Shown: positions 2,334 through 60,281 of the stretch, piece after piece
How positions within the stretch are numbered: position 1 is the stretch's first letter
Layout of the letters: every line of letters begins with the position of its first letter
From: a bacterium
GTDB lineage: Bacteria; Patescibacteriota; Minisyncoccia; Phycocordibacterales; SBAW01
Direction of reading: 5' to 3'
DNA length: 64,000 nt
Assembly: GCA_021839985.1 (NCBI GenBank)
Contig: JAKBZO010000001.1
Location: 676-64,675 of the forward strand
The notes under the pieces: generated by a model
Database searches by the model: none
Seen by the model: the letters and a program-made list of their open reading frames with translations, nothing else
What the model was told of the DNA's origin: nothing
Made by a program: the position numbers and the translations under genes

Positions 2334-2933
2334 TCACAACCCGGTTGCCATGAGTGATTCGTTGATCGATCGAATGAGCGCGCTGCGCGAGACGGCGGCA
2401 GACGCGGCGAGTTCCATCGACAGAGCGCTGTCGCCGATGAATGGCGCGAGCTCCGGCGTCTTTGGAAGATAGCCGAGATGATGGAGTGTGCGGAGTACCA
2501 GTACCGACTCGATGCCGTCGACTTCTTCGCGCGAACGCGCTGTAAGCAGAAGACCGATGCCCTCCACCACCTGATCATAAAGAGCGGGTGATGCTTCTTC
2601 GCCATGAATGAGGCGGGTGAGAAGCTGCAAGATCTTACCGACCGCATGCCGCGCATCGCGCGAACTTTCCGCGAATTGCGCGCGGTCCTTCTCGTGTTGG
2701 TGACCATTTACGATCTTCCACTCATGCTTGCCGCGCACCAGCGAAAAGCGCGCGATCGAAAGCGGCTCAAGAAAATAGCGCAGCTTCGATCGCGAGAGGC
2801 GGCTGCTTTGCGCTTTAGCATACAGAAGGCCGCGATCGCGCGTGAAGAGTACCGCGAGCGTGTTCGCTTCTCCGACGCCGCGCTTGCCAAGCACGATCCC
2901 CGGAGTAGTAAGAATGGTATGACCGAGGCTCAT
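2334..2933 (-). CDS. recO: DNA repair protein RecO
   Basis: The N-terminal OB-fold signature GIVLGKRGVGEANTLAVLFTRDRGLL and the C-terminal ...LRTLHHLGYLPK pattern are typical of RecO. Its length and its position next to a tRNA-synthetase gene are also compatible. Confidence 0.65.
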   Translation of the reverse strand: MSLGHTILTTPGIVLGKRGVGEANTLAVLFTRDRGLLYAKAQSSRLSRSKLRYFLEPLSIARFSLVRGKHEWKIVNGHQHEKDRAQFAESSRDARHAVGKILQLLTRLIHGEEASPALYDQVVEGIGLLLTARSREEVDGIESVLVLRTLHHLGYLPKTPELAPFIGDSALSMELAASAAVSRSALIRSINESLMATGL

Positions 2934-5900
2934 TGGGTGAGGATGAATCGAACGGGCATATTGAGTGATGGATGGATGGAGAGGTCTGCGGCGCGCATGA
3001 TCTCAAGCGCGCCAAGACCGGTCTGTGCGATGAGGTCATGCTTGTGCGACTCGAAGAACGCTTCCCATTCTTCGTCCACATCGACGCGCAGTGTCGGCCG
3101 GTCATTCACTAAGAGGCCTTCCTTTTTGCGCAGATCTTGGATCATCCGCGCGACGTCGCGCACCAGACCTTCTTCGCGCAGCTCATCCGTGATCGCGATG
3201 TCGAGCCACACGTCCTCTTCCATGTCAGTGTCGGTCTCGATGACCTTCACGTTCACTTCATCGGCGATGATGGCGCGCAGCACTTGATCATCCGGCAGTT
3301 CGCGCACTTTAAGAAGCGCGAGCGGCTGGCGCACCTTTATGCCGGAGGCGTCGCGGCGCTCAAGCGCGCGCGATGCGACGGTACGAATGATCGCCATGTC
3401 CGCGAGGATCTTTTCATCGACCGCGATATTCTCCGGCCAGTTCTCCAAGTGGACGCTCTCCTTTTCTCCACCCGCGCCCCGGTACACGCTCTCTGCAATG
3501 AACGGCATGAGCGGCGCCACGAGTTTTGCGAGCGCGAGCAAGACCTCGCGCTGTGTGGCAAGAGCAAATTGTTTGTCAGTAGCGTCCGCGCCCGTTCGCA
3601 CGCGATCGCGTGAGCGGCGCACATACCAGGTCGAATAATCTTCGATGAACGGGCGTAGTGCTCGCACGGAGCGCGGCATGTCGTAGGACTCCATCGCGTC
3701 GGTCATCTCGCGCACGAGCTCTCCCAAGCGCGAACGGACCCAATGATCAAGCGGATGCGGACTGTTCTCGCTTTCGGTCGCTCCGTCGTATTCCTCTTTA
3801 TAAAGCTCGAAGAATTTGTATGAGTTCCATAAAATGCCGATGACGCGGTTGTGCACCTCGCGCACGTCTTCATCGCGAAACGCGAAGTCCTCCGCCTGCA
3901 TCACCACGCTCCCCATCATATAGAGGCGCAGCGCGTCGGCGCCGTACTTATCGAGCAGCGCGAGCGGATCAGTGTAGTTGCCCTTGCTCTTGCTCATCTT
4001 GGAGCCGTCGGCGGCAAGCACGTTGCCGGTCACAACCGCGGCGCGGAACGACAGGCGATCAAAGAGCGCGACCGCCATCGCATGCATATAGTAAAACCAT
4101 GCGCGCGTCTGCCCGACATACTCGGCCACAAAATCGCCCGGCGCGCGCTTCTCGAATGCTTCGGCGTTCTCGAACGGATAGTGATATTCGGCGAACGGCA
4201 TGACGCCCGACTCCGCCCAACAGTCGATGACTTCCGGTATGCGGGTGTACTCTGCGCCATCGTCTCCGAGGAGCGTGATCGAATCGATATAGGGACGATG
4301 CAGGTCGAGATCGAATTTCGCGTTGAGCGGCAGCGGCTTGAACGGAAGTTCCATCACCTCGCCCGGCGCTGCCGCGAGATTCACTTCGCTCAGGAGATCG
4401 TCGCCGCGCGTGCCATCGAGCACTTCAACGAGCGACTTGAAGCCGACCGCGTGCGACACCATGACCACCGTCTTGTCCGCATACGTCTCCTCGTAGCCGT
4501 AGATCGCTTTGCCGAAACGGATCTTCGCTTCTTCAAAACTTTCGCCGTGATCGGGATGTACGGTGTACCAGTCGGGTCGTGCCAGCGCCTGTATCCACTC
4601 CGATTTCGGTCGGCCGTCATATTCGCCGAAGTTGAATTCTGCGAGCCGCTCATCGACGACGATCGAAGATCCATCAAGACCAAGCTCGCGCGCCATGATC
4701 GTGGCGGTCTCGCGCGCGCGGCGCACCGGCGAGGTCAGAAGCACCAGCGATTTCTCAGGCGTCTGTGCCAAGCTCGCGCGGATGGTGTGCGCCGCGCGCG
4801 CGGCCTGCTCCCGGCCCTTCTGCGTCAGCGGGTAGACGCTCTCTGGGTCGGCGGTGTAAATGCCCTTGCTCATATATTCCGACTCGCCGTGGCGCACGAT
4901 GAAGTATCGATTGCCCGCGGTCTTCGCGCGCTGCTTGAGCTCCTCCAAAGAGCCGACCACCATGTACCGGCCATCTTGTGCTTTCCAGATCGGCAGGGGC
5001 GACGCCCAGAAACGATTGCGCGAAATGGTCCAGTCGGGCGCATTGTCGACGATGTGTTTGAAACGACCATGCTTAAGATGCTCCGGCACCCACGTTATCT
5101 TTTCATTCTCTTCAAGAAGACGCGTCTTGATCTTCTGAATATTGATGAACCACGACGAGACCGCGTTGTAGACGAGCGCCGTCGAACAACGATAGCAGTG
5201 CGGATACGAGTGCGTGTGCTCCGCTTTCGCAAAAAGCAGACCGCGCTTCTCAAGATCTTCGATGATACGCTTGCCGCCCTTTTTGTAATACATGCCGACG
5301 ATGAACTCCGGCGCCATCGAGTTGTAGGAGCCGCTCGCGTCGAGCAGCTGGATCATCGGCAATCCTTCGCGCGCGCCGAGCGCGAAGTCGTCTTCGCCGT
5401 ACATGGGGGCAATGTGCACGATGCCGGTGCCGTCTTCGGTCGTGACGAAGTCGCCGGCATACACGCGATGCGCCACGCCCGACTTCTCCTCGCCTGCGAA
5501 TTCGTAGAGCGGTTCATATTCGAGACCGACCAAGTCTTTGCCCGATCGTTCCCAATCGAGCACATAGAGTATCTGCTTTTGTGCGAAAAAGTTATTCGTG
5601 TCCTGCGAAAGAATATAAAGTTCAGGGCTGTCTGGTTTTTTAGCGAGTTGGTATTTGATATTTTCACCCACCGCCAGCGCCATGTTTCCCGGCAGCGTCC
5701 ACGGCGTGGTAGTCCACGCGAGCAAATACACATCACCCGAAAGTCCGAGAGCGTTCGGGTCTTTGACCTTGAACTTCACCGTCACCGCCGTATCCGTCAC
5801 ATCCTTATAGGTGTTATCCATCGCGATCTCCGCTTTTGCCAGCGGCGTCTCGCAGTGCGGGCAGTACATGAGCACCTTGCGGCCTTCGTAGAGGAGCTCC

Positions 5901-6418
5901 TTCTCATGCAAGCGCTTGAGCGACCACCATACGCTCTCGATGTACGAGTTGTCCATCGTCTTGTACGAATGTTTGAAGTCGACCCATCGTCCGATGCGCT
6001 CGACATATTTCTCCCACTCGCGCTCGAATTCAAGCACGCTGGAGCGCGCCGCTTCGTTGAACGCCGCGATACCTACCTGCTCGATATCTTTTTTTGTCTT
6101 AAGACCGAGCCGTTTCTCAATGAGGCTCTCGATCGGAAGACCGTGGCAATCCCACCCCCACCGGCGGCGCACGCTATACCCGCGCATCGTCTTGTAGCGC
6201 GGCACGACATCCTTCACGATCGACGAGAGCAGCGAACCATAGTGCGGAAGGCCGGTCGCAAATGGCGGGCCATCATAAAATATGAACTCGCCATGTGGCG
6301 CATCTTTCCCTACCGACTTTTCAAAAATTTCGCGCTCTTTCCAAAAAGCGAGCACGCCCTCCTCGCGTTGCGCTATCTCCGTCTTTTCTTGCGTCTTCGC
6401 TTTCTGTTCCTCAGCCAT
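2930..6418 (-). CDS. ileS: Isoleucyl-tRNA synthetase of the type-2 (eukaryote/archaeal-like) class, carrying an inserted histidine-phosphatase domain
   Basis: The HIGH-region is FYDGPPFATGLPHYGS, followed by the CP1 editing domain, the WTISRNRFWASPLPIW motif, DLHRPYID and GSKMSKSKGN (KMSKS). Between the PIW and HRPY motifs sits an extra ~190 aa with a RHGESE...SHAVG histidine-phosphatase signature. Confidence 0.85.
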   Translation of the reverse strand: MAEEQKAKTQEKTEIAQREEGVLAFWKEREIFEKSVGKDAPHGEFIFYDGPPFATGLPHYGSLLSSIVKDVVPRYKTMRGYSVRRRWGWDCHGLPIESLIEKRLGLKTKKDIEQVGIAAFNEAARSSVLEFEREWEKYVERIGRWVDFKHSYKTMDNSYIESVWWSLKRLHEKELLYEGRKVLMYCPHCETPLAKAEIAMDNTYKDVTDTAVTVKFKVKDPNALGLSGDVYLLAWTTTPWTLPGNMALAVGENIKYQLAKKPDSPELYILSQDTNNFFAQKQILYVLDWERSGKDLVGLEYEPLYEFAGEEKSGVAHRVYAGDFVTTEDGTGIVHIAPMYGEDDFALGAREGLPMIQLLDASGSYNSMAPEFIVGMYYKKGGKRIIEDLEKRGLLFAKAEHTHSYPHCYRCSTALVYNAVSSWFINIQKIKTRLLEENEKITWVPEHLKHGRFKHIVDNAPDWTISRNRFWASPLPIWKAQDGRYMVVGSLEELKQRAKTAGNRYFIVRHGESEYMSKGIYTADPESVYPLTQKGREQAARAAHTIRASLAQTPEKSLVLLTSPVRRARETATIMARELGLDGSSIVVDERLAEFNFGEYDGRPKSEWIQALARPDWYTVHPDHGESFEEAKIRFGKAIYGYEETYADKTVVMVSHAVGFKSLVEVLDGTRGDDLLSEVNLAAAPGEVMELPFKPLPLNAKFDLDLHRPYIDSITLLGDDGAEYTRIPEVIDCWAESGVMPFAEYHYPFENAEAFEKRAPGDFVAEYVGQTRAWFYYMHAMAVALFDRLSFRAAVVTGNVLAADGSKMSKSKGNYTDPLALLDKYGADALRLYMMGSVVMQAEDFAFRDEDVREVHNRVIGILWNSYKFFELYKEEYDGATESENSPHPLDHWVRSRLGELVREMTDAMESYDMPRSVRALRPFIEDYSTWYVRRSRDRVRTGADATDKQFALATQREVLLALAKLVAPLMPFIAESVYRGAGGEKESVHLENWPENIAVDEKILADMAIIRTVASRALERRDASGIKVRQPLALLKVRELPDDQVLRAIIADEVNVKVIETDTDMEEDVWLDIAITDELREEGLVRDVARMIQDLRKKEGLLVNDRPTLRVDVDEEWEAFFESHKHDLIAQTGLGALEIMRAADLSIHPSLNMPVRFILTQ
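4350..4900 (-). other. Histidine-phosphatase (PGAM-like) domain inserted in frame within the ileS catalytic core
   Basis: The codons for RHGESEYM lie at 4861-4884 on the minus strand. The second catalytic His sits in VVMVSHAVGF. In Thermus-type IleRS the same motif boundaries are separated by only about 40 aa. Confidence 0.55.
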
Positions 6419-21539: not shown

Positions 21540-22253
21540 CTTGGCTAGCAACCTAAATTCTTTAAATCAGATACAATTAAAATATGTTTAAGAAAATATT
21601 CCTTTGGGCTTTTGATCTATACAAAAAACACAACATGGAACAGTACTACCTCCAAGGCAAAGCTTGGGGGCGTAAGGACCATAACGAGGATATTGTTCGG
21701 GCAATGGACCTGGTCTCTGACCGGCATTACAGACGATGTCTGGATGTAGGCGCCGGGTTGGGACACTACAGCGAGTATGCAGCAAAAATATGCGATGAGG
21801 TGGTTGCGACGGATATTTCAAGCGTAGCGATAGGATGGGCACAAAACCGTCTCCGCCACTTTAAAAACATACGATTTGAAGTAAAAAATCTTAGAGACGC
21901 TAGTGCTTCATGGGGGGGGTTCGATCTTATAATTTTAGCTGAAGTTCTCTATTATCTCGGCGACGAGCGATTCCCGGTTGACTTCAAGAAATTGCTTCGA
22001 CGGATAACCGATCTGGTACAAGAGAAAGGCCGCATTTTGCTCGTCAATTACGTATCGCCGGGACGGAATGAAGAACAACTCCGATCGTACGTAAATGATT
22101 TTGTCAAAATGGGCCTTTCTCTTGAAAAGAACGAGACGATCAAGGTTGGCCAAAAAACATTTCTTGCCGCAGTGTTGCGGAAATAATGTTATTCGCCGAC
22201 CTCGAACAGATTATATTAATGATCACTTTGGGGCGACTACAGGGATCGGTCAC
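21540..22253. mobile_element. AT-rich islet carrying the methyltransferase gene, bounded by atcggtcac repeats and ending at a degenerate copy of the tRNA-His 3' end
   Basis: atcggtcac occurs at 21505-21513 and 22245-22253. The sequence tggggcgactacaggga at 22229-22245 copies the tRNA-His 3' end at 22438-22455 (16 of 17 nt). Confidence 0.35.
21584..22186 (+). CDS. Class I SAM-dependent methyltransferase, located in an AT-rich islet
   Basis: The motif I LDVGAGLGHYS sits within a Rossmann fold. Local composition is markedly AT-richer than the flanking sequence. Confidence 0.6.
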   Translation: MFKKIFLWAFDLYKKHNMEQYYLQGKAWGRKDHNEDIVRAMDLVSDRHYRRCLDVGAGLGHYSEYAAKICDEVVATDISSVAIGWAQNRLRHFKNIRFEVKNLRDASASWGGFDLIILAEVLYYLGDERFPVDFKKLLRRITDLVQEKGRILLVNYVSPGRNEEQLRSYVNDFVKMGLSLEKNETIKVGQKTFLAAVLRK

Positions 22254-22437
22254 TCTCGTGGGTTTTTGCTTTGCTCTGCGAGCTCACAAAAACCTCACTC
22301 GCTCGACCCCCACCCGCCGCCTCCGCTCATTCGCTTCGCTCATGAACGGGCTTCGCGGCGGCTTGGTTCGATTCCCTGTAGTCGGCCCAGGAATATATCC
22401 TCGGCGCTCCGCACCTACGTCTTATTCTGGGCGACTA

Positions 22438-22512
22438 CAGGGAATCGAACCCTGATTGCGAGTTCCACAAACTCGAGTGTTAACCGTTACACCATAGTCG
22501 CCATACTACACA
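22438..22512 (-). tRNA. tRNA-His (anticodon GTG) with G-1
   Basis: The reverse complement folds as a cloverleaf with the anticodon loop tt-GTG-ga and the T-loop ggttcgattcc. The 3' end is ...tagtcgccca. Confidence 0.8.
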
Positions 22513-22563: not shown

Positions 22564-22647
22564 GGATTCGAACCTCCATAGGATTGCTCCCGCTACCACC
22601 TCAAGGTAGTGCGTCTAGCCAATTTCGCCACCTGGGCAACTGTTGTT
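22564..22647 (-). tRNA. tRNA-Leu (anticodon GAG), long variable arm
   Basis: The reverse complement reads gcccaggtggcgaaattggctagacgcactacc-ttGAGgt-ggtagcgggagcaatcctatggaggttcgaatcctctcctgggca. Confidence 0.8.
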
Positions 22648-23367
22648 CAAACCTGCCATCCTCAAGACACGGTCGACCTTCATTCGCTTACGTGACAGGC
22701 AGATAGCACTATTACCATAATATATTGAGGGCAATAACTCAAGGGATTCATGCTTCGCGTATTTCAACTGAAAGACCGTCCTATTTGCATTTTGTGTAAT
22801 ATGGCCATTAATGCCTAGTCGGCGCTTGATCTCCGTTCTTAGCCAGGAGATATGCTTTTTACTTGCGGAGGCAAAAACTGTATAGAACATAAAACTAGCT
22901 TCCCATCGCGAATCCATGTATGAGTAAAAACTGCCATCCCCGTCGAATGACCCTCGCAAGAAATCAAAGAAATATCTGTTGGGAATCTTTACTGCGCCAA
23001 TGGTCTTCGACTTTGCACCAGATATGCCGATTGAACATAAAAAATTATGGAACAAGGTATCGCTGAACTGAACGTGTCCGCACAGGTCGCCATTCCCATT
23101 GCTTTTGGTGCTTAACTTTACTTGTATATTCAGGCAGCGGCAAAAATTATCAAGCTGTTCTTCATCTTTTGAAGTCAATGTTACATGCCGGCCATCGACA
23201 GACACATAACCGTCTGTTGCCAACAACCCAAGAGCGTAGGCAAAATTAGCAGACCACTTGATCTCCACTTTTCCTTTCGGTTTCGGACCACGCTTCCCTA
23301 TAAACAAATAGTAGCACGGCTCAAGGTAATAGCGTCTACCAATTTGTGGTATTAAAAAGACCGGCAT
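22615..23367 (-). CDS. LAGLIDADG homing endonuclease (double-motif, free-standing) in an AT-rich islet
   Basis: Two LAGLIDADG motifs are present: FAYALGLLATDGYV and FLRGSFDGDGSF. The ORF's last ~33 nt overlap the 5' part of tRNA-Leu. Low GC. Confidence 0.75.
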   Translation of the reverse strand: MPVFLIPQIGRRYYLEPCYYLFIGKRGPKPKGKVEIKWSANFAYALGLLATDGYVSVDGRHVTLTSKDEEQLDNFCRCLNIQVKLSTKSNGNGDLCGHVQFSDTLFHNFLCSIGISGAKSKTIGAVKIPNRYFFDFLRGSFDGDGSFYSYMDSRWEASFMFYTVFASASKKHISWLRTEIKRRLGINGHITQNANRTVFQLKYAKHESLELLPSIYYGNSAICLSRKRMKVDRVLRMAGLNNSCPGGEIG

Positions 23368-25760: not shown

Positions 25761-27599
25761 TTACACGGTAATGATCTGATGCTCAACGAGGCGGCGGTAT
25801 GGTTCGCAGGTTTCCACGAGCTCTGCGTGCTTGCCCACGCCGACCATGCGGCCGCCATCCATCACGATGATCCGGTCCGCGTCACGCACGGTCGAAAGGC
25901 GGTGCGCGATGATAATGCCGGTGCGACCCTTGAGCGCTTCTCCCATCGCTTCGTGGATGATCGCTTCATTCTCGGCGTCAAGGTTGGAAGTGGCTTCGTC
26001 GAAGATGAGAATGTCGGGCTCCTGCAGAAGCGCTCGCGCGATGCCGACACGCTGGCGTTCGCCGCCGGAAAGCTTTACGCCGTTCTCGCCGATCAGCACG
26101 TCGAATCTTTTCTCACCGAGGCGATCATAGAATTGGTCGACGCGCGCCTTGCGCGAAACGTCATCAAGCTGCGCATCGGTGATCGTCTCAGGGTGCGCCG
26201 CAGCGAAGGTCATATTGTAGCGCAGCGCATTGTCGAACAGCTCGACTTGCTGCGGCACATAACCGACACGGCGCAGGAAACTCTGCTGGCTCACGTCGCG
26301 CAGATCATGCCCATCAACGAGAACACTGCCCTGATCCGGATCATACCCGCGCAACAGCAGGTGGACGATCGTGGTCTTGCCCGCACCGGAGTGCCCAACG
26401 ATCGCGGCGGTCTCCCCCGCCTCGATCGTGAACGACACATCGCGCAGGATCTCTTTGGACACGTCATCCTCTTCATTCCCCTCGCCAGCCGTTTCATCGT
26501 CGTCAGACGATACTTCTGGCGTGGCTTCGGCAGGCGCGATCGGATACGCGAACGAGACGTTGCGAAATTCGATGCGGCCGCTGATGCTTCCGAGCTCTAC
26601 CGCGCCAGCCTTGTCCTTCACCGCCGGCTCGCGATCAAGCGCATCGTGATAGATCTGAATATCAGAAAACTGCGTGATCATCTGCCGCTGCGCCCAGCCA
26701 AGATTGCCGACATTACCGAACACGCTCCCCATCCAGCCGATGAGCATCACGATCGAGCCGGGCGACTGCGCGCCGATCGAGACCAGATACACGCCGACCA
26801 TGAGCGCGAACACCTGTCCGAAGTAGATGAGCGTCGTGCGCCAGTAGTACGATGACAGATAATCGAACCAGATCGCCCGAGACGTTTGCGCCTTATCTTC
26901 GTACAACGTGTCATATTCGCGAACGATGGCGTCTTCTTTTGCCGAGAGTTTGATGACTTTTACATTGCGTAGCGCCTCGTTGAAATATTTCGACTGATCG
27001 TTCCATCGTTTGCGATTTTCTTTCATGGTCGGTAAGAACGTCGTGTTGTAGCGATACTGTGCCGCTACGTATATCAATGAGAAGAAGAGCACAACGCCGC
27101 CGAGTAAAGGACTTACGAATGTGATCGCAGCTGTCGCCAGAATGATCTGGAGCAAGAATGGCAGGAGCGAGTACACGCTCGTGTTGATGAATGCTATGAG
27201 CGCGTCACTGCCCTTATTCACCACCGAGAGGCGGAGGCCCGAATGTTCATTGATGTGTTGCCCAAGAGAAAAACGAAACACACGCTCCAGCGTGTGCGTC
27301 GCTATGAATTGCGGCATGCCGTAATCAAGATGCGCTTGCTCATATCGTTCGCGTAGGTAGTTGAGAATGTTGGCAACGAGATAGACGCCAAGGATGATGC
27401 CGCCGAGCATGAACGAATGTGAAAGCGGCGCGTGCGTGGCGAGATCGTCAATGATCTTACCCTGCAGATATGGAAGGAACAGAAAGAGCACTTGACCGCC
27501 GACCAGGAGCACGAACAAGATCGTGAGTATGCCGAAAAACGGCCGGTACAGCGTACGCAGCATGGCGAGCGGTTTGGTTTTTGGTGTTGTTTCAGTCAT
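25761..27599 (-). CDS. ABC transporter of the fused permease + ATPase (exporter type, MsbA/ABCB-like) kind
   Basis: A six-TM domain followed by Walker A GHSGAGKTT, the signature LSGGERQRVGIARAL and Walker B ILIFDEATSNLD. An acidic insert EATPEVSSDDDETAGEGNEEDD is present. Confidence 0.85.
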   Translation of the reverse strand: MTETTPKTKPLAMLRTLYRPFFGILTILFVLLVGGQVLFLFLPYLQGKIIDDLATHAPLSHSFMLGGIILGVYLVANILNYLRERYEQAHLDYGMPQFIATHTLERVFRFSLGQHINEHSGLRLSVVNKGSDALIAFINTSVYSLLPFLLQIILATAAITFVSPLLGGVVLFFSLIYVAAQYRYNTTFLPTMKENRKRWNDQSKYFNEALRNVKVIKLSAKEDAIVREYDTLYEDKAQTSRAIWFDYLSSYYWRTTLIYFGQVFALMVGVYLVSIGAQSPGSIVMLIGWMGSVFGNVGNLGWAQRQMITQFSDIQIYHDALDREPAVKDKAGAVELGSISGRIEFRNVSFAYPIAPAEATPEVSSDDDETAGEGNEEDDVSKEILRDVSFTIEAGETAAIVGHSGAGKTTIVHLLLRGYDPDQGSVLVDGHDLRDVSQQSFLRRVGYVPQQVELFDNALRYNMTFAAAHPETITDAQLDDVSRKARVDQFYDRLGEKRFDVLIGENGVKLSGGERQRVGIARALLQEPDILIFDEATSNLDAENEAIIHEAMGEALKGRTGIIIAHRLSTVRDADRIIVMDGGRMVGVGKHAELVETCEPYRRLVEHQIITV

Positions 27600-27637
27600 A
27601 AATCATGAGTGGGGGTGCACGCTGTAGGACTCGGCCA

Positions 27638-27726
27638 AGCGCTCGCTCGTCGCCGTCGCTCCTCGCTCCGCTCGGCCCTGCTCGCGCGACCCAGTCTGCT
27701 GACTGGGTGCCCGCGCTCGCTTTCGA
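27638..27726. repeat. Copy 1 of a ~90-nt structured repeat (CGCTC-rich arm plus a hairpin with covarying stem)
   Basis: aagcgctcgctcgtcgccgtcgctcctcgctccgctcggccctgctcgcgcgaccc-agtctgctgactgg-gtgcccgcgctcgctttcg. The second copy at 32739-32837 differs mainly by compensatory changes in the inner stem. Confidence 0.6.
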
Positions 27727-27800
27727 GCCCCTCAGGGTGCACAAAATTAAGCTCCGATACGCTCACGCGTATCGGAGCTTAATTTTGTGCACCCTGAGGG
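27724..27800. repeat. Long palindrome (~37-bp arms) made of the tRNA-Val 3' end plus a trailer and their inverted copy
   Basis: gagcccctcagggtgcacaaaattaagctccgatacg-ctcacg-cgtatcggagcttaattttgtgcaccctgaggggctc. Confidence 0.6.
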
Positions 27801-27860
27801 GCTCGAACCCCCGACCTTCTCAGTGTAAATGAGTTGCTCTACCAACTGAGCTAAGGGTGC
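27788..27860 (-). tRNA. tRNA-Val (anticodon TAC)
   Basis: The reverse complement reads gcacccttagctcagttggtagagcaactca-ttTACac-tgagaaggtcgggggttcgagcccctcagggtgca. Confidence 0.8.
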
Positions 27861-28065
27861 AAAAACATACCGCGAACACCGCTAAATTTACAATAAAAAC
27901 TTGTGTTGAGCAATGTTTTTCGTTCGTTTGTGCCCTCGGGAGGGATGATCCCGCAGTTACTAACTCGCTTGTTCGTGCTGCGCACTCCAAGCCCGTAAGT
28001 ACTGCTGGACGCGGCTCGCTATTTTGCTCGCCGAGGGCGCTCGCAAAATATGCTCCGCCGGTTCG

Positions 28066-28092
28066 ATTCCTCCCGCACGCAAAGCAGTTTGC
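28066..28092. repeat. Hairpin gcacgcaaa-gcagt-tttgcgtgc; the same stem with an inverted loop recurs at 33604-33631
   Basis: Both copies are followed by ctccg(g/a)g. Both lie about 40-70 nt 3' of a minus-strand tRNA-Arg gene. Confidence 0.5.
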
Positions 28093-28127
28093 GTGCTCCG
28101 GGGGCACACACTCACTACGTTCGTTTG

Positions 28128-28199
28128 TGCCCCCACGAGGAATCGAACCTCGATCAGCGGCTTAGAAGTCCGCAGTTTTATCCATTAAACTACAGGGGC
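28128..28199 (-). tRNA. tRNA-Arg (anticodon TCT)
   Basis: The reverse complement reads gcccctgtagtttaatggataaaactgcgga-ctTCTaa-gccgctgatcgaggttcgattcctcgtgggggca, with one A-G mismatch at the base of the anticodon stem. Confidence 0.7.
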
Positions 28200-28503
28200 T
28201 TTTAGTCTTTCCAAAACATCCTAATTGTATATAGGTCTTTCTTCTGTGACAATTTGCGCACCTTACCTCACATTTTTCCGTCTCCGCCAAAACGGATCCC
28301 CAGGAATAATGTCCTGACAGCATTTGTGATGCTTTCTTAAATTTTACGGAGGGGACCACGTGGTCAAAGTCTAACACGATAGGATCACTCTCCCCACAAT
28401 CAACACATTTTTTTGTAGAAAGCAGGGCCAACAACTTTTCTCTGACACGTATGCGGTGTCTTTTTTGAGCGGCGTATAAATCCTCTTTCTTTTTATAGGG
28501 CAC
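28162..28503 (-). CDS. Small HNH endonuclease in an AT-rich islet; its 3' end overlaps the tRNA-Arg(TCT) 5' half
   Basis: The HNH motif is CVDCGESDPIVLDFDHVVP...CANCHRRKT. The segment 28200-28500 is low in GC. Confidence 0.7.
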   Translation of the reverse strand: MPYKKKEDLYAAQKRHRIRVREKLLALLSTKKCVDCGESDPIVLDFDHVVPSVKFKKASQMLSGHYSWGSVLAETEKCEVRCANCHRRKTYIQLGCFGKTKSPCSLMDKTADF

Positions 28504-32269: not shown

Positions 32270-32706
32270 TCGTGCGCTCCGGTCGAGTTCATTCTATCAA
32301 GGAAGCTCTGCAATATCACGGCTGCGGCTGACGCGTCGAGTTTTTCTTGAGCGGATGCTCCCTGCTTGCGAGCGTTGCGCGGATGTTCTCCTCGCCCGAC
32401 ACGCGAAGCCTGCGCGCTTGTCATGAACTCTGGCTCGAAGATGATCGGGGTGCCTGCCGCTCGGCCAAGTGCGTCAGCGAACGAGCGGACCCGCGCCATG
32501 ACCGGATTGTCGCGGCCGGAGAGATCTTTCGATTCGCCGATCACGAACGCTTTCGCCTCTCGCTCGCGCGCGAGCGCCGATGCACGTGCAAGCGCATCTT
32601 TCTCACTGGCCACTTCAAGCGGAAATGCGACGCGGTCTCCCTCGTCGGACACGGCGAGTCCTACACGCTTGGTTCCATAATCGATACCGATATACATATG
32701 ATTCAT
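32266..32706 (-). CDS. ruvX: Holliday-junction resolvase-like protein RuvX/YqgF
   Basis: YIGIDYGTKRVGLAVSD is the YqgF N-terminal signature. The true start is probably MYIGID (32697). Confidence 0.85.
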   Translation of the reverse strand: MNHMYIGIDYGTKRVGLAVSDEGDRVAFPLEVASEKDALARASALAREREAKAFVIGESKDLSGRDNPVMARVRSFADALGRAAGTPIIFEPEFMTSAQASRVGRGEHPRNARKQGASAQEKLDASAAAVILQSFLDRMNSTGAHE

Positions 32707-32738
32707 TCCCAGAAATGCGGATGGGGTGAGATTCGGCT

Positions 32739-32837
32739 AAGCGCTCGCTCGTCGCCGTCGCTCCTCGCTCCGCTCAGCCCTACTCGCGCGACCCGCCGTG
32801 CTCGGCGGGTGCCCGCGCTCGCCTTCGGATCTCACCC
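32739..32837. repeat. Copy 2 of the ~90-nt structured repeat, preceded at 32716-32736 by a 20-nt direct copy of the tRNA-Ser 3' end
   Basis: Identical to copy 1 over aagcgctcgctcgtcgccgtcgctcctcgctccgctc and ctcgcgcgaccc...gtgcccgcgctcgc. The inner stem is gccgtgctcggcgg here versus agtctgctgactgg in copy 1. The sequence tgcggatggggtgagattcg is repeated at 32716 and 32892. Confidence 0.6.
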
Positions 32838-32891
32838 AATCGCGCAATGGCAATCTTCAAATAGTCGCGGGGACTGTTTGAACGAGCCACC

Positions 32892-32979
32892 TGCGGATGG
32901 GGTGAGATTCGAACTCACGACACCTTGCGGTGTGGCGGTTTTCAAGACCGCTGCCTTAGACCACTCGGCCACCCATCCA
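32892..32979 (-). tRNA. tRNA-Ser (anticodon TGA), long variable arm
   Basis: The reverse complement reads ggatgggtggccgagtggtctaaggcagcggt-ctTGAaa-accgccacaccgcaaggtgtcgtgagttcgaatctcaccccatccgca. Confidence 0.8.
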
Positions 32980-33597: not shown

Positions 33598-33677
33598 TCT
33601 GGAGCGCACGCAAACTGCTTTGCGTGCTCCGAGAGGGTAAGCGAAAAAAGCGCTCGTTGCGCTCTTTTTCGTACTTG

Positions 33678-33749
33678 TCCTCTCGGTAGGAATCGAACCT
33701 ACATTACAAGCTCCGCAAGCTTGCGTTCTATCCATTGAACTACGAGAGG
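33678..33749 (-). tRNA. tRNA-Arg (anticodon GCG)
   Basis: The reverse complement reads cctctcgtagttcaatggatagaacgcaagc-ttGCGga-gcttgtaatgtaggttcgattcctaccgagagg. It is followed on the minus strand by the hairpin terminator agcgaaaaaagcgctcgttgcgctctttttcg (33640-33672). Confidence 0.8.
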
Positions 33750-35298: not shown

Positions 35299-35383
35299 AA
35301 AACGAACGCAGTATCACACAAAGAAAGGGCGCCGCTTCGCGGCGCCCTTTCTTTGTGTTCTGCTTTGTGTTCTGTATAAAAAA

Positions 35384-49154: not shown

Positions 49155-49299
49155 TGGCAAAACAAAAGCCGCGTAATGCGGCTTTTGTTAGAACATGGCT
49201 CTAAGTTGGGTCAATATTGAATCACGAAGCCAAAAGAGTACAGTTATGGAAGTTATGTTTTCTTGCATGTTGTTCTTTGCGACTCGTTGATTCGAGACC

Positions 49300-49450
49300 G
49301 CATACCTCTAAGCAATACTCATTTCGATAAATCGAAAGTGGAAGACGGTTCTGAGGATAGCCCCCGCGGGAACAGTATAAAAACTGCTGCCGAAGCGTCC
49401 TTAAATCGGTCCCAAAACCAGGGTTGGCCGTATTGCTTAGAGATATGCTC
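49300..49450. ncRNA. Candidate structured ncRNA in an AT-rich intergenic region (13-bp closing helix ctctaagcaatac / gtattgcttagag around several internal hairpins)
   Basis: Internal hairpins are ttcgat-aa-atcgaa and cagt-ataaaa-actg, and GC-rich stems are present. No convincing ORF. About 80-220 nt upstream of ruvB. No match to RNase P, tmRNA or SRP cores was recognised. Confidence 0.2.
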
Positions 49451-49524
49451 CCTCGAACATTGAGTGCGATCTCCGTGAGTGAGTGTCGTAAGAACTGCTT
49501 AAAGGTTAGCATACTAAACAATCT

Positions 49525-57640: not shown

Positions 57641-58738
57641 TTATCTATTCATCGGCATTGCGAGATAGAAAAACGAATCATCAGCCACATCTTGGATGAG
57701 CGCTGGTCTTCCGGCGCCATTGAGACGAATACGAACACTCTCCCCCGCAAGCGGCGTCAGACCATCAGCAAGATACTTGCTATTGAACGTCATCGTGATC
57801 TGCTCGCCGGAAACCGCCGCCTTCAGCACGCACTCTTCTTCTCCAACATCAGCATTACGAGATGAAAGATGCACGGTCTTTTCTTTTGGCTGAACCACGA
57901 ACACCACCTGCAAGAATTTATCATTGAACACGGAGAGCCCTTTGAGTGCTTGAGAGAGATCCTCACGCAGCAACACCACCTCGGTGTTGAAGGTCTTCGG
58001 CACGATCTGCGTGTAGTTCGGATAGGTTCCATCGAGGAGGCGGCTCGTGTAGTACACTCCTTCTAGTTGTATCGAAAATTGATTGTCGTTGTAGTACACC
58101 TCAACATCACCCTTCACTCCTTCAAGGATACGCACCAACTCGCCCACATTACGCGCTGGCATAAGAAGGTTCGGTACCGACCCTGGGCTTTTAAGCGCTG
58201 CTTGTTTTTCTGCGAGACGGAACGAGTCGGTCGCAACAAAATACAATTTCCCCACATCGCCGTACACTAGTACGCTCTGGAGTTCTGGTTTTACGTTCGA
58301 CACCGAGGCGCAGTTGAGTACCGATCTGATACCTTTAGCGAGATCTTGTGCTTTTACCACAAAGGAATGCTCTGCCGGTATGCGCGGAAGGATCGGGAAA
58401 TCATCATGGGGAATGGTTTTTATAGTTGCTGATGTTCTCTCGGTTTTTAACTTCATAACTCCACCATCGACCGTACATTCGATCGAATGCCCGTGACTAT
58501 TTGAAAGGAAACCTATCAAAGTCGCGCTGGAAATAGCTGTCGCACCCGAGGAAAGAACTCGCGCCGGCACCACCACCTCAACGCCATATTCAAGATTGGT
58601 TGCTCGAAGCACTACCGAGTCGCCGTTCGTCTCAAGATAGATCGAATTTAAAGTCGGCATGGTCCCGCCGCGCTGTACGAACCGCGCCGCGATCGATGCT
58701 GCCTCAACCAAGTTTTCCACCGTACATTCGAATTTCAT
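57641..58738 (-). CDS. dnaN: DNA polymerase III beta sliding clamp
   Basis: 365 aa in a three-domain clamp. It is adjacent to dnaA, and the N-terminal MKFECTVENLVEAASIA is typical. Confidence 0.9.
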   Translation of the reverse strand: MKFECTVENLVEAASIAARFVQRGGTMPTLNSIYLETNGDSVVLRATNLEYGVEVVVPARVLSSGATAISSATLIGFLSNSHGHSIECTVDGGVMKLKTERTSATIKTIPHDDFPILPRIPAEHSFVVKAQDLAKGIRSVLNCASVSNVKPELQSVLVYGDVGKLYFVATDSFRLAEKQAALKSPGSVPNLLMPARNVGELVRILEGVKGDVEVYYNDNQFSIQLEGVYYTSRLLDGTYPNYTQIVPKTFNTEVVLLREDLSQALKGLSVFNDKFLQVVFVVQPKEKTVHLSSRNADVGEEECVLKAAVSGEQITMTFNSKYLADGLTPLAGESVRIRLNGAGRPALIQDVADDSFFYLAMPMNR

Positions 58739-58970
58739 AGTATTTGTTTTTAAATTAAATAAATCTCAAAATGAAGTAAGAAGGGGGTGTGGATAGTGGA
58801 TAGTAAAGAAGAGTGGTGTGGAATAAGTATTTTTTGTTTAGTTGGGAGTCTTGTTAGTTGTGGATTGTTCGGTGGGGTTGTGGATGGCTGCTGCGGTTCC
58901 CTTATTGCTCAGTTTTTACGAACGTCCTGTCCGTATCTTATCCACATCATCTCAACATGTTCCGTATCTG
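58739..58970. other. Candidate oriC segment: the AT-rich dnaA-dnaN spacer with clustered DnaA-box-like 9-mers
   Basis: tgtggatag and gtggatagt at about 58788-58805, tgtggaata at about 58815, tgtggattg at about 58862, tgtggatgg at about 58884, and a perfect ttatccaca at 58957-58965. Confidence 0.55.
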
Positions 58971-60281
58971 CTGAAGTTCTTGTAATAATTCACTATTGGT
59001 CTGGGTGTCCTTTTTGACTTTCTCGCACGAGTGAATGACAGTTGTGTGGTCGCGACCACCGAGCTTCTCGCCGATCGTTGGGAATGAGATCTTGAAATCC
59101 TCGCGCAGGATATACATAACGACCTGGCGCGGGTGGACCACCTCTTTTCGGCGCGTCTTTTCGTAAATATCGTTCTCTTCGATGTTATAGAATTCAGCGA
59201 TAATTTTAACGATCTCAGGGATGGAGATCGACTTCTTCGGCGCCGCGGCAGCGCGCAGGAGCTCTTTTACATCAATCAGCGAGAGTGGGCCATCGCGCAT
59301 TTCCAGCGAGAGAAGAAGAGTGTTGATCGCGCCTTCAAGCTCGCGCACGTTGCCGTTCACGGTCGATGCGACATAGTCGGAGATCTCGTCCGGCAGTACG
59401 CTGCCGCGCGAGGCGGCTTTTGCACGCACGATCGCCACGCGGCTCTCATGATCGGGCGGCGTGATCGACACCACCATGCCTTGGCTGAAGCGCGACTTAA
59501 GGCGATCAACGAGTTTTTGGATCAGATTAGGGTGCTGGTCTGACGAGAACACGAGCTGACGGTTCTTGTCGAAGAGCGCGTTGAATAGGTGGAAGAGCTC
59601 TTCCTGCGTACCGCTTTTTCCGGAGAGGAATTGGATGTCATCCATGACAAGCAGGTCGTACTCGCGGTACTTTTCTTTGAACGCAGGGATGCGGCTCGAT
59701 TGCATCGCGGCGACGTACTCCAGATAGAACTTCTCTGACGTGATGTAGTAGATCTTCCGCTCCGGCGCTTGTGCGCGGAAACTATTCCCTATCGCTTGAA
59801 TAAGATGCGTCTTACCAAGACCCGGTTCGCCGTACACAAAGAGCGGGTTGTAGGCAATGCCCGGCTTCTTGGAGACCGCCTGAGCGGCGGCGTGTGCGAG
59901 TTCATTGAATGGACCCACGATGAACGAGTTGAAGGTGTAGCGCGGATTGAGGTTGGTCTGAGAATGGACATTCTCAAGCGGCAGCTCGCCAAGCGACGTC
60001 GCAGGGCGAACCTCCTCCGCGCTTTTTTTCGGATGTTTCGAGATGATGTATTCGACCGAACGAACATTCTCCGAAAGACGGCGCAGAGAAGCGAGAATGA
60101 GTTTGTGATATTTGGTCGCGAACCAGTCGCGGATGAATTGGCTCGGAACGCCGACGAATACGACGCCGTCGTCGACGCGGACGATGTGGGTGTCGCGGAA
60201 CCAGGTATTAAAGGCGGCTTTCGGGATGGTGAGTTCGAGATCGGTAAGGGCGTTCTCCCAGAGTTCGCGCGTGGTGGTCAT
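58947..60281 (-). CDS. dnaA: Chromosomal replication initiator DnaA
   Basis: An AAA+ domain with Walker A GEPGLGKTHL, a DnaA box-binding C-terminal domain, and a perfect DnaA box tgtggataa upstream at 60347-60355. Confidence 0.9.
   Translation of the reverse strand: MTTTRELWENALTDLELTIPKAAFNTWFRDTHIVRVDDGVVFVGVPSQFIRDWFATKYHKLILASLRRLSENVRSVEYIISKHPKKSAEEVRPATSLGELPLENVHSQTNLNPRYTFNSFIVGPFNELAHAAAQAVSKKPGIAYNPLFVYGEPGLGKTHLIQAIGNSFRAQAPERKIYYITSEKFYLEYVAAMQSSRIPAFKEKYREYDLLVMDDIQFLSGKSGTQEELFHLFNALFDKNRQLVFSSDQHPNLIQKLVDRLKSRFSQGMVVSITPPDHESRVAIVRAKAASRGSVLPDEISDYVASTVNGNVRELEGAINTLLLSLEMRDGPLSLIDVKELLRAAAAPKKSISIPEIVKIIAEFYNIEENDIYEKTRRKEVVHPRQVVMYILREDFKISFPTIGEKLGGRDHTTVIHSCEKVKKDTQTNSELLQELQQIRNMLR

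Follow-up and report, generated by a model that had tools for sequence, protein, structure and literature searches.

Transfer RNA genes of the window and the units behind them

The window analysed here is a 64-kb stretch of DNA from a bacterium of the candidate phyla radiation (CPR). ARAGORN and Rfam place eight transfer RNA (tRNA) genes in it, seven of them on the minus strand, and 3' of four of these, tRNA-His, tRNA-Val, tRNA-Arg(TCT) and tRNA-Ser, lies a complete unit of about 190 nucleotides (nt) which carries copies of the 3' end of its tRNA. On balance, with the sequence comparisons leaning modestly in favour, these units are read here as an undescribed family of small insertion units that are non-autonomous and specific for the 3' ends of tRNA and transfer-messenger RNA (tmRNA) genes. 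One further gene, tRNA-Arg(GCG), carries a truncated unit, and the arrangement is absent 3' of the window's tRNA-Leu, tRNA-Lys and tRNA-Arg(CCG).

Read in the sense of the tRNA, the four complete units have the same layout. The 3' end of the tRNA itself (a_prox) is followed by a spacer 19-48 nt long and then by a', in which tRNA positions ~54-73 are repeated in inverted orientation; next come a core of 87-119 nt, rich in GC and purines, and a_dist, which repeats the tRNA 3' end in direct orientation. Two spacer types (S1, S2) and at least four related core types (A-D) can be distinguished. The parts are as follows, L-numbers denoting comparison loci.

22429-22501, minus strand: tRNA-His(GTG) (ARAGORN; Rfam tRNA, 62.5 bits), its last ~20 nt being the a_prox of the His unit
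22390-22428, minus strand: His spacer, S1-like (GCGGAGC...CGAGGATAT motif), compared with the spacers of L025, L002 and L010
22365-22389, minus strand: His a', an inverted repeat, complement of tRNA-His positions ~52-73 plus CCA-like bases (22/23)
22246-22364, minus strand: His core, type B, two GA-rich hairpins; fold z = -6.9
22229-22245, minus strand: His a_dist, repeating the tRNA-His 3' end in direct orientation with CCA after it, where the gene has C73-CA
27787-27860, minus strand: tRNA-Val(TAC) (ARAGORN, Rfam)
27743-27786, minus strand: Val spacer, perfect terminator-like hairpin with A-/T-rich flanks, centre of a palindrome with 41-nt arms
27722-27742, minus strand: Val a', exact complement of tRNA-Val positions 54-74
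27633-27721, minus strand: Val core, type A, with hairpins P2 (AGCA loop) and P3 (GACG loop, GA-rich); 121.7 bits over 27623-27729 with the covariance model
27610-27632, minus strand: Val a_dist, degenerate copy of the tRNA-Val 3' end (GAGTCCTACAGCGTGCAC) followed by CCCCA; its T-stem resembles the tRNA-Val allele of L021
28127-28199, minus strand: tRNA-Arg(TCT) (ARAGORN, Rfam)
28108-28126, minus strand: Arg(TCT) S2 loop, AAACGAACGTAGTGAGTGT, aligned with the Val units of L019 and L021
28060-28107, minus strand: Arg(TCT) a', split into an acceptor part (28096-28107) and a T-stem/T-loop part (28060-28075), with hairpin h (28076-28095) between them
27946-28059, minus strand: Arg(TCT) core, type C; fold z = -5.7; 87% identical to the core behind tRNA-Val of L019
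27920-27945, minus strand: Arg(TCT) a_dist with a copy of the 10-nt trailer (AAACGAACGA)
32893-32978, minus strand: tRNA-Ser(TGA) (ARAGORN, Rfam)
32847-32892, minus strand: Ser spacer, from sequence and alignment
32824-32846, minus strand: Ser a', inverted copy of the tRNA-Ser 3' end
32737-32823, minus strand: Ser core, type A; 118.9 bits over 32725-32831 with the covariance model
32716-32736, minus strand: Ser a_dist, exact 20-nt copy of the tRNA-Ser 3' end
33677-33749, minus strand: tRNA-Arg(GCG)
33606-33676, minus strand: truncated Arg(GCG) unit, with a terminator hairpin, an acceptor fragment of a' (33629-33637) and hairpin h (33606-33627), without core and a_dist

Spacers of type S1 are hairpins with A-/T-rich flanks and a conserved GGAG/CGAC tandem-GA motif. 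In units with cores of types C and D the spacer is a loop of 17-19 nt (ACGAACG.AGTGAG), and hairpin h is located between the acceptor and T-stem parts of a', so that conserved scaffold is interleaved with tRNA-specific segments. Hairpin h is identical over 22 nt between the Arg(GCG) and Arg(TCT) units. The ACGAACG.AGTGAG motif was also seen as the immediate 3' trailer of several tRNAs with and without units (window 35299-35315 and 28108-28126; L019 7338-7357; L008 6772-6791).

A promoter-like site at 28252-28224 was found before tRNA-Arg(TCT) and none before tRNA-Val, the Arg(TCT) unit being positioned between these two genes, and in L013 three successive tRNAs of one cluster each have a unit behind them. 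Some units must therefore be transcribed. Units are also located directly upstream of start codons, namely that of ruvX, 10 nt past the a_dist of the Ser unit, and that of an ABC transporter gene.

Direct and inverted copies of the tRNA ends

The last 30 nt of each tRNA were compared with the 320 nt downstream and the matches judged against 300 shuffles. The initial annotation had reported direct repeats behind the four genes, and all of them exist. None of the shuffles was as good as the direct copies of His (15/15 nt) and Ser (19/19 nt), while those of Val (15/19 nt; 12 shuffles as good) and Arg(TCT) (13/17 nt ungapped; 123 shuffles as good) are weak, the latter extending in a gapped alignment over 10 nt of trailer, AAACGAACG. 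The downstream copy of His lies at 22229-22245 as described; its counterpart in the gene had to be moved from 22438-22453 to about 22429-22445, and that of Arg(TCT) begins at 28119.

An inverted copy of the tRNA 3' end is found 42-69 nt downstream in all four cases (His 22/23, Val 21/21, Arg(TCT) 13/13, Ser 16/18), with none of the 300 shuffles as good in any of them. The inward-facing T-loop/acceptor fragment which had been noticed in the His and Arg(TCT) units is thus real and not confined to these two. At tRNA-Val, the tRNA end, the spacer and a' form a perfect palindrome with arms of 41 nt (27722-27762 and 27767-27807). The interiors of the Val and Ser units have an exact 35-mer in common, for which the chance expectation is zero.

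A conserved fold in the core

The structure of the type-A core was examined in an alignment of 20 distinct cores. It forms a three-way junction of P1 (a' paired with a_dist), P2 with an AGCA tetraloop and the long hairpin P3 with a GACG tetraloop, and the same fold was obtained independently with RNAalifold. Ninety-one percent of the alignment cells are paired, and in 13 of the 30 pairs both sides vary. In 500 column shuffles none of the pairing or covariation measures was attained, and in controls with slid partners pairing fell to 25-41%. The helices hold tandem G·A pairs (GCGAGC opposite GCGAGC), which are replaced by Watson-Crick pairs in L013 and L048. Cores consist of about 65% purines on the tRNA-sense strand, and on this strand 37 cells are G·U and 4 are A·C. 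Because of this excess of G·U and of the tandem G·A pairs the folded strand is the tRNA-sense strand, and the folded molecule is this strand as RNA or as single-stranded DNA. Selection on the core is strong and confined to this strand. Types B (His) and C (Arg-TCT) are unlike type A in sequence and alike in style, with two hairpins and GA-rich internal loops.

The arms as copies of the local tRNA

In every type-A unit a' is the reverse complement of the T-loop, the 3' strand of the T-stem, the 3' strand of the acceptor stem and the discriminator of the local tRNA. Noncanonical T-loops are copied too: TGCAAGT of the tRNA-Met in L048 appears as ACTTGCA in a', and TTCGATT of the tRNA-Gly in L018 as AATCGAA. 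Since these are reverse complements and no sense copies, an origin of the units from tandem pseudo-tRNAs was rejected. The sense copy a_dist starts at about position 56.

Watson-Crick pairing amounts to 93% between a_prox and a' and to 85% between a' and a_dist, a' remaining nearest to the functional tRNA end. Mismatches in the arms have no wobble bias, with G·U to A·C ratios of 6 to 5 and 13 to 8, respectively, and in L010, L013, L024 and L052 a_dist has largely decayed while the core is intact. The arms thus look like neutrally decaying DNA copies of the target.

The triplet CCA follows a_dist in 4 of about 24 units and never follows the tRNA gene of a filled site; it is also encoded by 3 of about 30 unoccupied CPR tRNA genes. 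Reverse transcription from mature tRNA was therefore rejected as the source of the arms: unoccupied genes encode CCA, a' copies the trailer of the gene and not CCA, and a_dist starts at about position 56 and not at 59. A simpler reading would be that a_dist is the displaced resident tRNA end, and this fits with the a_dist of the Arg(TCT) unit in the window, which, its 10-nt trailer included, is closer to the L019 allele of tRNA-Arg(TCT) than to the window's own gene. In the CPR loci as a whole, 41 of 55 tRNA genes end in discriminator-C-A rather than CCA; CCA is encoded by three of the 55, none of which has a unit.

Distribution of the family

A 20-mer taken from the 35-mer common to Val and Ser was used to scan one genome per prokaryotic species, which yielded 18 loci, with Saccharibacteria, Parcubacteria, Nomurabacteria, Kaiserbacteria and Minisyncoccia among the CPR groups represented. 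Every CPR genome match for which the context was available lies 100-320 nt downstream of a co-oriented tRNA gene. A scan of Joint Genome Institute (JGI) metagenomes gave 31 loci; in 13 of these a tRNA 3' end is located 120-124 nt upstream of the 20-mer, two lie behind a tmRNA gene, and the remaining ones are chance matches in an acidobacterial coding gene or truncated contigs. The family spans several CPR classes. Type-A units were found behind tRNAs for Tyr, Ser (CGA, GCT, GGA, TGA), Gln, Asp, Arg-TCG, Lys (CTT, TTT), Gly, His, Leu (TAG, GAG, CAA, TAA), Glu, Met and Val, in all more than 18 tRNA species. All complete copies follow a tRNA or tmRNA gene on its 3' side, in the orientation of that gene, and none is dispersed to other intergenic sites. 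A covariance model built from the type-A alignment also picks up diverged copies and the related type D (tRNA-Cys of L013, first unit of L001).

A similar arrangement was noticed in Halorubrum (L003 876-1150; L012 1429-1850; L016 2936-3060). Units 3' of tRNA-Ser(GGA) consist there of an antisense T-arm, about 36 nt of GA-rich sequence and an exact 22-nt copy of the tRNA 3' end; the loops of the downstream hairpins bear a 22-nt GA-rich sequence, GAGCGAGGAGCGACGGCGACGA, which is also that of the P3 hairpin of CPR type A, and the ACGAACG.AGTGAG motif is present inside these units too. The arrangement may be a cross-domain relative or a convergence.

Insertion polymorphism and turnover

Empty and filled versions of orthologous sites, which the initial annotation had proposed to look for, occur among relatives. 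The flanking genes of L019 are 88% identical to those of the window at the nucleotide level. In L019 tRNA-Ser is followed by the ATG of ruvX after 3 nt, and the window has 195 additional nt (32698-32892). In L022 tRNA-Arg(TCT) is 26 nt from tRNA-Val, which in turn is 53 nt from the ABC transporter gene, so that both sites are empty. L021 and L022 are 84-93% identical; L021 has a type-D unit behind tRNA-Val and is empty where L022 has a unit behind another tRNA-Ser. The Val site thus contains type A in the window, type C and a type-B fragment in L019, type D in L021 and nothing in L022. In the latter two loci ARAGORN also calls a tRNA-Ser with anticodon ACT, an unusual assignment (L021 4514-4598; L022 7240-7324).

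The relatedness of cores ignores tRNA identity and cuts across genomes. Between the type-B core behind tRNA-His in the window and the core that follows tRNA-Arg(TCT) in L019 the identity is 97-98%, more than the 88% of the flanking genes, and this homology runs from the T-loop part of a' to exactly a_dist. The closest core to that of the window's Ser unit is the one behind tRNA-Tyr in L001 (96%), and the cores behind tRNA-Arg-TCG in L010 and tRNA-Lys-TTT in L015, which belong to one genome assembly, are 93% identical. The Tyr units of L001 and L026 differ in their cores although their degenerate a' is the same, so that an exchange of cores is possible with the arms retained. In the arrays of L001, L008, L025 and L035 the tRNA-proximal unit has the better arms and the distal units are truncated, a polarity which repeated insertion into the functional tRNA end would produce.

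The unit and downstream gene of L028 (9340-9446) are identical to those of L034 (1495-1601), and directly upstream of the spacer L028 has unrelated sequence, consisting of an open reading frame (ORF) and a structured-looking region, in place of tRNA-Gln. This suggests a larger insertion at the same junction.

Searches for an enzyme or a known family

An integrase, which the initial annotation had also proposed to search for, was found neither in the window nor in the about 30 loci. The Phage_integrase domain was absent from the window and within ±10 kb, and the sole integrase near units, seen in three loci at a distance of 4-6 kb, is a syntenic Xer-like gene beside rpsO. No reverse transcriptase was present in any locus examined, and no transposase near any unit. 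With Rfam 15 only the tRNAs passed the gathering score in the window, and a permissive search of 27550-28250 (E ≤ 10) gave hairpin-type chance matches and nothing relevant. A hammerhead or other small ribozyme was rejected on this ground and on account of junction strands unlike the hammerhead core. The 20-mers of type A and type D had no match in IMG/VR; a 15-mer hit 120 viral loci, and the covariance model, run on 100 of these, found nothing. BLAST against plasmid and phage collections gave no match either, and an origin from phages or plasmids was rejected on these searches. A full-text literature search retrieved no description of the family.

Comparison with known systems

Elements which use tyrosine integrases to target tRNA and tmRNA genes, including a class with a T-loop/3'-end sublocation, are reportedly treated in a 2002 Nucleic Acids Research paper by Williams. 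Like such elements the units insert at the 3' segment of the tRNA, leave the tRNA intact and supply a replacement 3' end; the displaced direct repeat starts in the T-loop, tmRNA is used, and the newest insertion is next to the gene. They differ in their size of ~190 nt, the lack of an integrase, one core at more than 18 tRNA species as opposed to one or a few, the obligatory inverted copy of the target, and a core under single-strand structural selection.

Folded single strands serve as recombination sites in integron attC and in the attP(+) hairpin of CTX-phi, which is integrated by XerCD of the host. In comparison with these, the a - X - a' - Y - a layout would be the trace of integration by a folded, target-mimicking hairpin; one strand folds, noncanonical pairs are tolerated, tandem arrays occur and no recombinase encoded by the element is needed. 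The core has the one-strand structure expected from this comparison, and RNA fits equally well. In contrast to attC and CTX attP, the target is the tRNA 3' end and not attI or dif, and the arms differ with each target. No R-box, GTTRRRY or dif-like motif was found in the unit alignments and no IntI near the loci examined.

With miniature inverted-repeat transposable elements (MITEs) and the REPINs (paired repetitive extragenic palindromic sequences) the units share that they are small, noncoding, hairpin-forming, multicopy and dependent on factors acting in trans. The terminal inverted repeats of these are, however, constant and recognised by a transposase, whereas the arms of the units copy the local tRNA and differ from copy to copy, and copies occur only at tRNA and tmRNA 3' ends in one orientation. 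An internal segment complementary to the own flank is known from the exon- and intron-binding sites (EBS/IBS) of group II introns, the guides of IS200/IS605 and the bridge RNA of IS110, and a folded scaffold interleaved with target-specific segments as well as a patchy distribution likewise recall mobile introns and guide elements. Unlike in these, Rfam shows no ribozyme or intron signature, the tRNA is uninterrupted, no associated protein was found, the arms decay neutrally and their pairing is not maintained. The three-way junction resembles the shape of retron noncoding RNA, but there is no reverse transcriptase gene at the loci examined. TIGR-Tas (tandem interspaced guide RNA) arrays were rejected as relatives, as their units are ~36-nt dual-spacer units beside a Nop-domain protein, and here they are ~190 nt, single or double, and without a Tas gene.

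Elements processed like tRNAs include the t-elements of plant mitochondria and the mascRNA (MALAT1-associated small cytoplasmic RNA), and GC-rich palindromes flank the mitochondrial tRNA genes of Neurospora. These share with the units the mimicry of acceptor and T-stem beside genes and the GC-rich structured flanks of tRNAs. In the units, unlike in t-elements and mascRNA, the T-loop is replaced by a two-hairpin core of ~95-130 nt, the stem copies the adjacent tRNA exactly, and the arrangement is insertion-polymorphic.

Interpretation and alternatives

The analysis established the anatomy of the units, their tRNA-specific arms, the single-strand selection on the core, the insertion polymorphism, the polarity of the arrays and the lack of a linked protein. 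In the mechanism proposed for units of this kind the incoming unit would be a-spacer-a'-core, its a:a' stem being a duplex copy of the target. It would enter the segment from T-loop to 3' end of a tRNA or tmRNA gene together with a replacement end, leaving the gene intact: the unit would supply a_prox, and the resident tRNA end, pushed downstream, would become a_dist. The unit would be co-transcribed with the tRNA, and a trans-acting enzyme would recognise the folded core as RNA or the same strand as single-stranded DNA. As target repeats lie on both sides of it, the unit might enter an empty copy of the same tRNA gene through recombination or homing, and recombination of the repeats with each other might remove it again. 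New arms would probably be made at the spacer hairpin, where the end of the local tRNA would be copied by fold-back.

Several points weigh against this reading. No enzyme was identified, Pfam scans finding no integrase, reverse transcriptase, HUH enzyme or transposase in the window, and all-against-all clustering of ORFs at about 24 loci revealed no recurrent neighbour gene, only syntenic housekeeping genes and spurious ORFs in cores. A free or circular form of the unit was not seen, and contigs of the same species show no polymorphism, four other contigs having identical units. The interleaving of scaffold and tRNA-specific segments in types C and D makes a simple fold-back model awkward, and an RNA beneficial to the host would be another explanation of why the core is so highly conserved from one CPR class to another.

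Such a host-functional structured RNA linked to the tRNA, not mobile and with arms from local duplication, is the main rival, though on the present evidence rather an unlikely one. It could be a tRNA-like signal cut by RNase P or RNase Z between the tRNA and a downstream tRNA or mRNA, or a decoy or regulator which pairs with the tRNA 3' end. In its favour, the core shows strong purifying selection and covariation, on the transcribed-sense strand only; the stem of a' and a_dist amounts to the acceptor stem and T-stem of the neighbouring tRNA, with hairpin h of types C and D where the D and anticodon arms would be, and units occur inside tRNA clusters and immediately before start codons. This rival is weakened by rapid turnover, decay of P1 and neutral arms: presence and core type at the same tRNA vary between relatives that are 84-93% identical, core relatedness crosses tRNA identities and genomes, the tRNA-like stem is lost through decay of a_dist in four loci with intact cores, the arms lack wobble bias, and half of the window's tRNAs have no unit behind them.

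The initial annotation had interpreted the repeats as attL/attR duplications left by site-specific integration. That they mark insertions at tRNA 3' ends, flanked by the duplicated end and leaving the tRNA intact, is borne out by the empty sites in relatives. It is highly improbable, however, that they are ordinary scars of a larger integrase island or prophage which was almost wholly deleted. A direct repeat from T-loop to 3' end, with the 10-nt trailer at Arg(TCT), does flank the insert as attachment sites would, a tmRNA gene is among the targets, arrays are polar, and L028 has its larger insertion of unrelated sequence at the same junction. Against this, more than 18 tRNA species have the same ~95-nt core behind them, with compensatory changes in it, which one integrase specificity cannot explain; unit length and motif offset (+120-124 nt) are constant, the inverted target copy is always present and is not a product of att duplication, and neither the units nor their surroundings yielded an integrase fragment. 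The alternative suggestion, a miniature element targeting tRNA genes, comes much closer, its shortcoming being that the arms vary between copies and derive from the target, unlike the terminal repeats of MITEs. Chance similarity, low-complexity GC-rich sequence, an assembly artefact or a small arginine-rich ORF through the core might be thought of in view of an open frame (...RSEERRRRASAW...) in several type-A cores and the chance match of the 20-mer to an acidobacterial coding gene. This has become so improbable as to be effectively refuted by covariation and context statistics: none of the 300 or 500 shuffles equalled the observed values, the same unit occurs in independent assemblies from many studies, indels of one or two nt break the frame in L006, L008, L025 and L043, and substitutions in the stems are compensatory rather than synonymous.

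If the units are insertion units, there is a substantial chance that their mechanism is of a new kind. It is possible, though this is put forward tentatively, that they represent a new class of mobile element, a protein-less parasite of tRNA tails of ~190 nt whose core, folded as RNA or single-stranded DNA, recruits a host enzyme and whose arms of ~20 nt are rewritten from the target at each insertion. Rewriting would proceed through target-templated or guide-like recognition of the segment from T-loop to acceptor.

Other features of the window

On the minus strand dnaN and dnaA are located at 57641-60281, and the replication origin is probably at ~60.3-60.7 kb. All unit-carrying tRNAs of the window are co-directional with the leftward fork; from the position of dnaA and dnaN it follows for the minus-strand tRNAs that the folded strand is the lagging-strand template. 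A free-standing ORF resembling a LAGLIDADG homing endonuclease (22615-23367, minus strand) overlaps with its 3' end the 5' end of tRNA-Leu(GAG) and is kept in further contigs of the same species. The minus-strand gene at 2930-6418 encodes a class-I aminoacyl-tRNA synthetase of the Ile/Val/Leu type with a His_Phos_1 (histidine-phosphatase) domain inserted at residues 506-670. Just upstream of ruvB, at 49291-49457, an imperfect 28-nt inverted repeat around 111 nt without an Rfam match may be an unannotated structured RNA.

Significance

With a unit at about half of the tRNA genes in 64 kb, the family makes up a substantial unannotated component of very small CPR genomes, and it accounts for odd "tRNA fragments" and spurious ORFs beside CPR tRNA genes. 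Its core has a conserved fold that is new and well supported, in which the tandem G·A helices are unusual and the AGCA and GACG loops conserved, and the type-A covariance model provides a direct means to take a census of the units. Should the GA-rich hairpin module behind the tRNA-Ser of Halorubrum be related, archaea may have to be included in the family. That a constant scaffold is combined with arms matching the tRNA points to a mechanism of targeting or copying which has been described neither for MITEs nor for integrases or introns; should the target serve as template for the arms, this principle would be of interest to the biology of mobile elements and to programmable insertion. Rewriting of the arms, if it takes place, would allow a single family to spread to any tRNA or tmRNA gene without loss of the gene.

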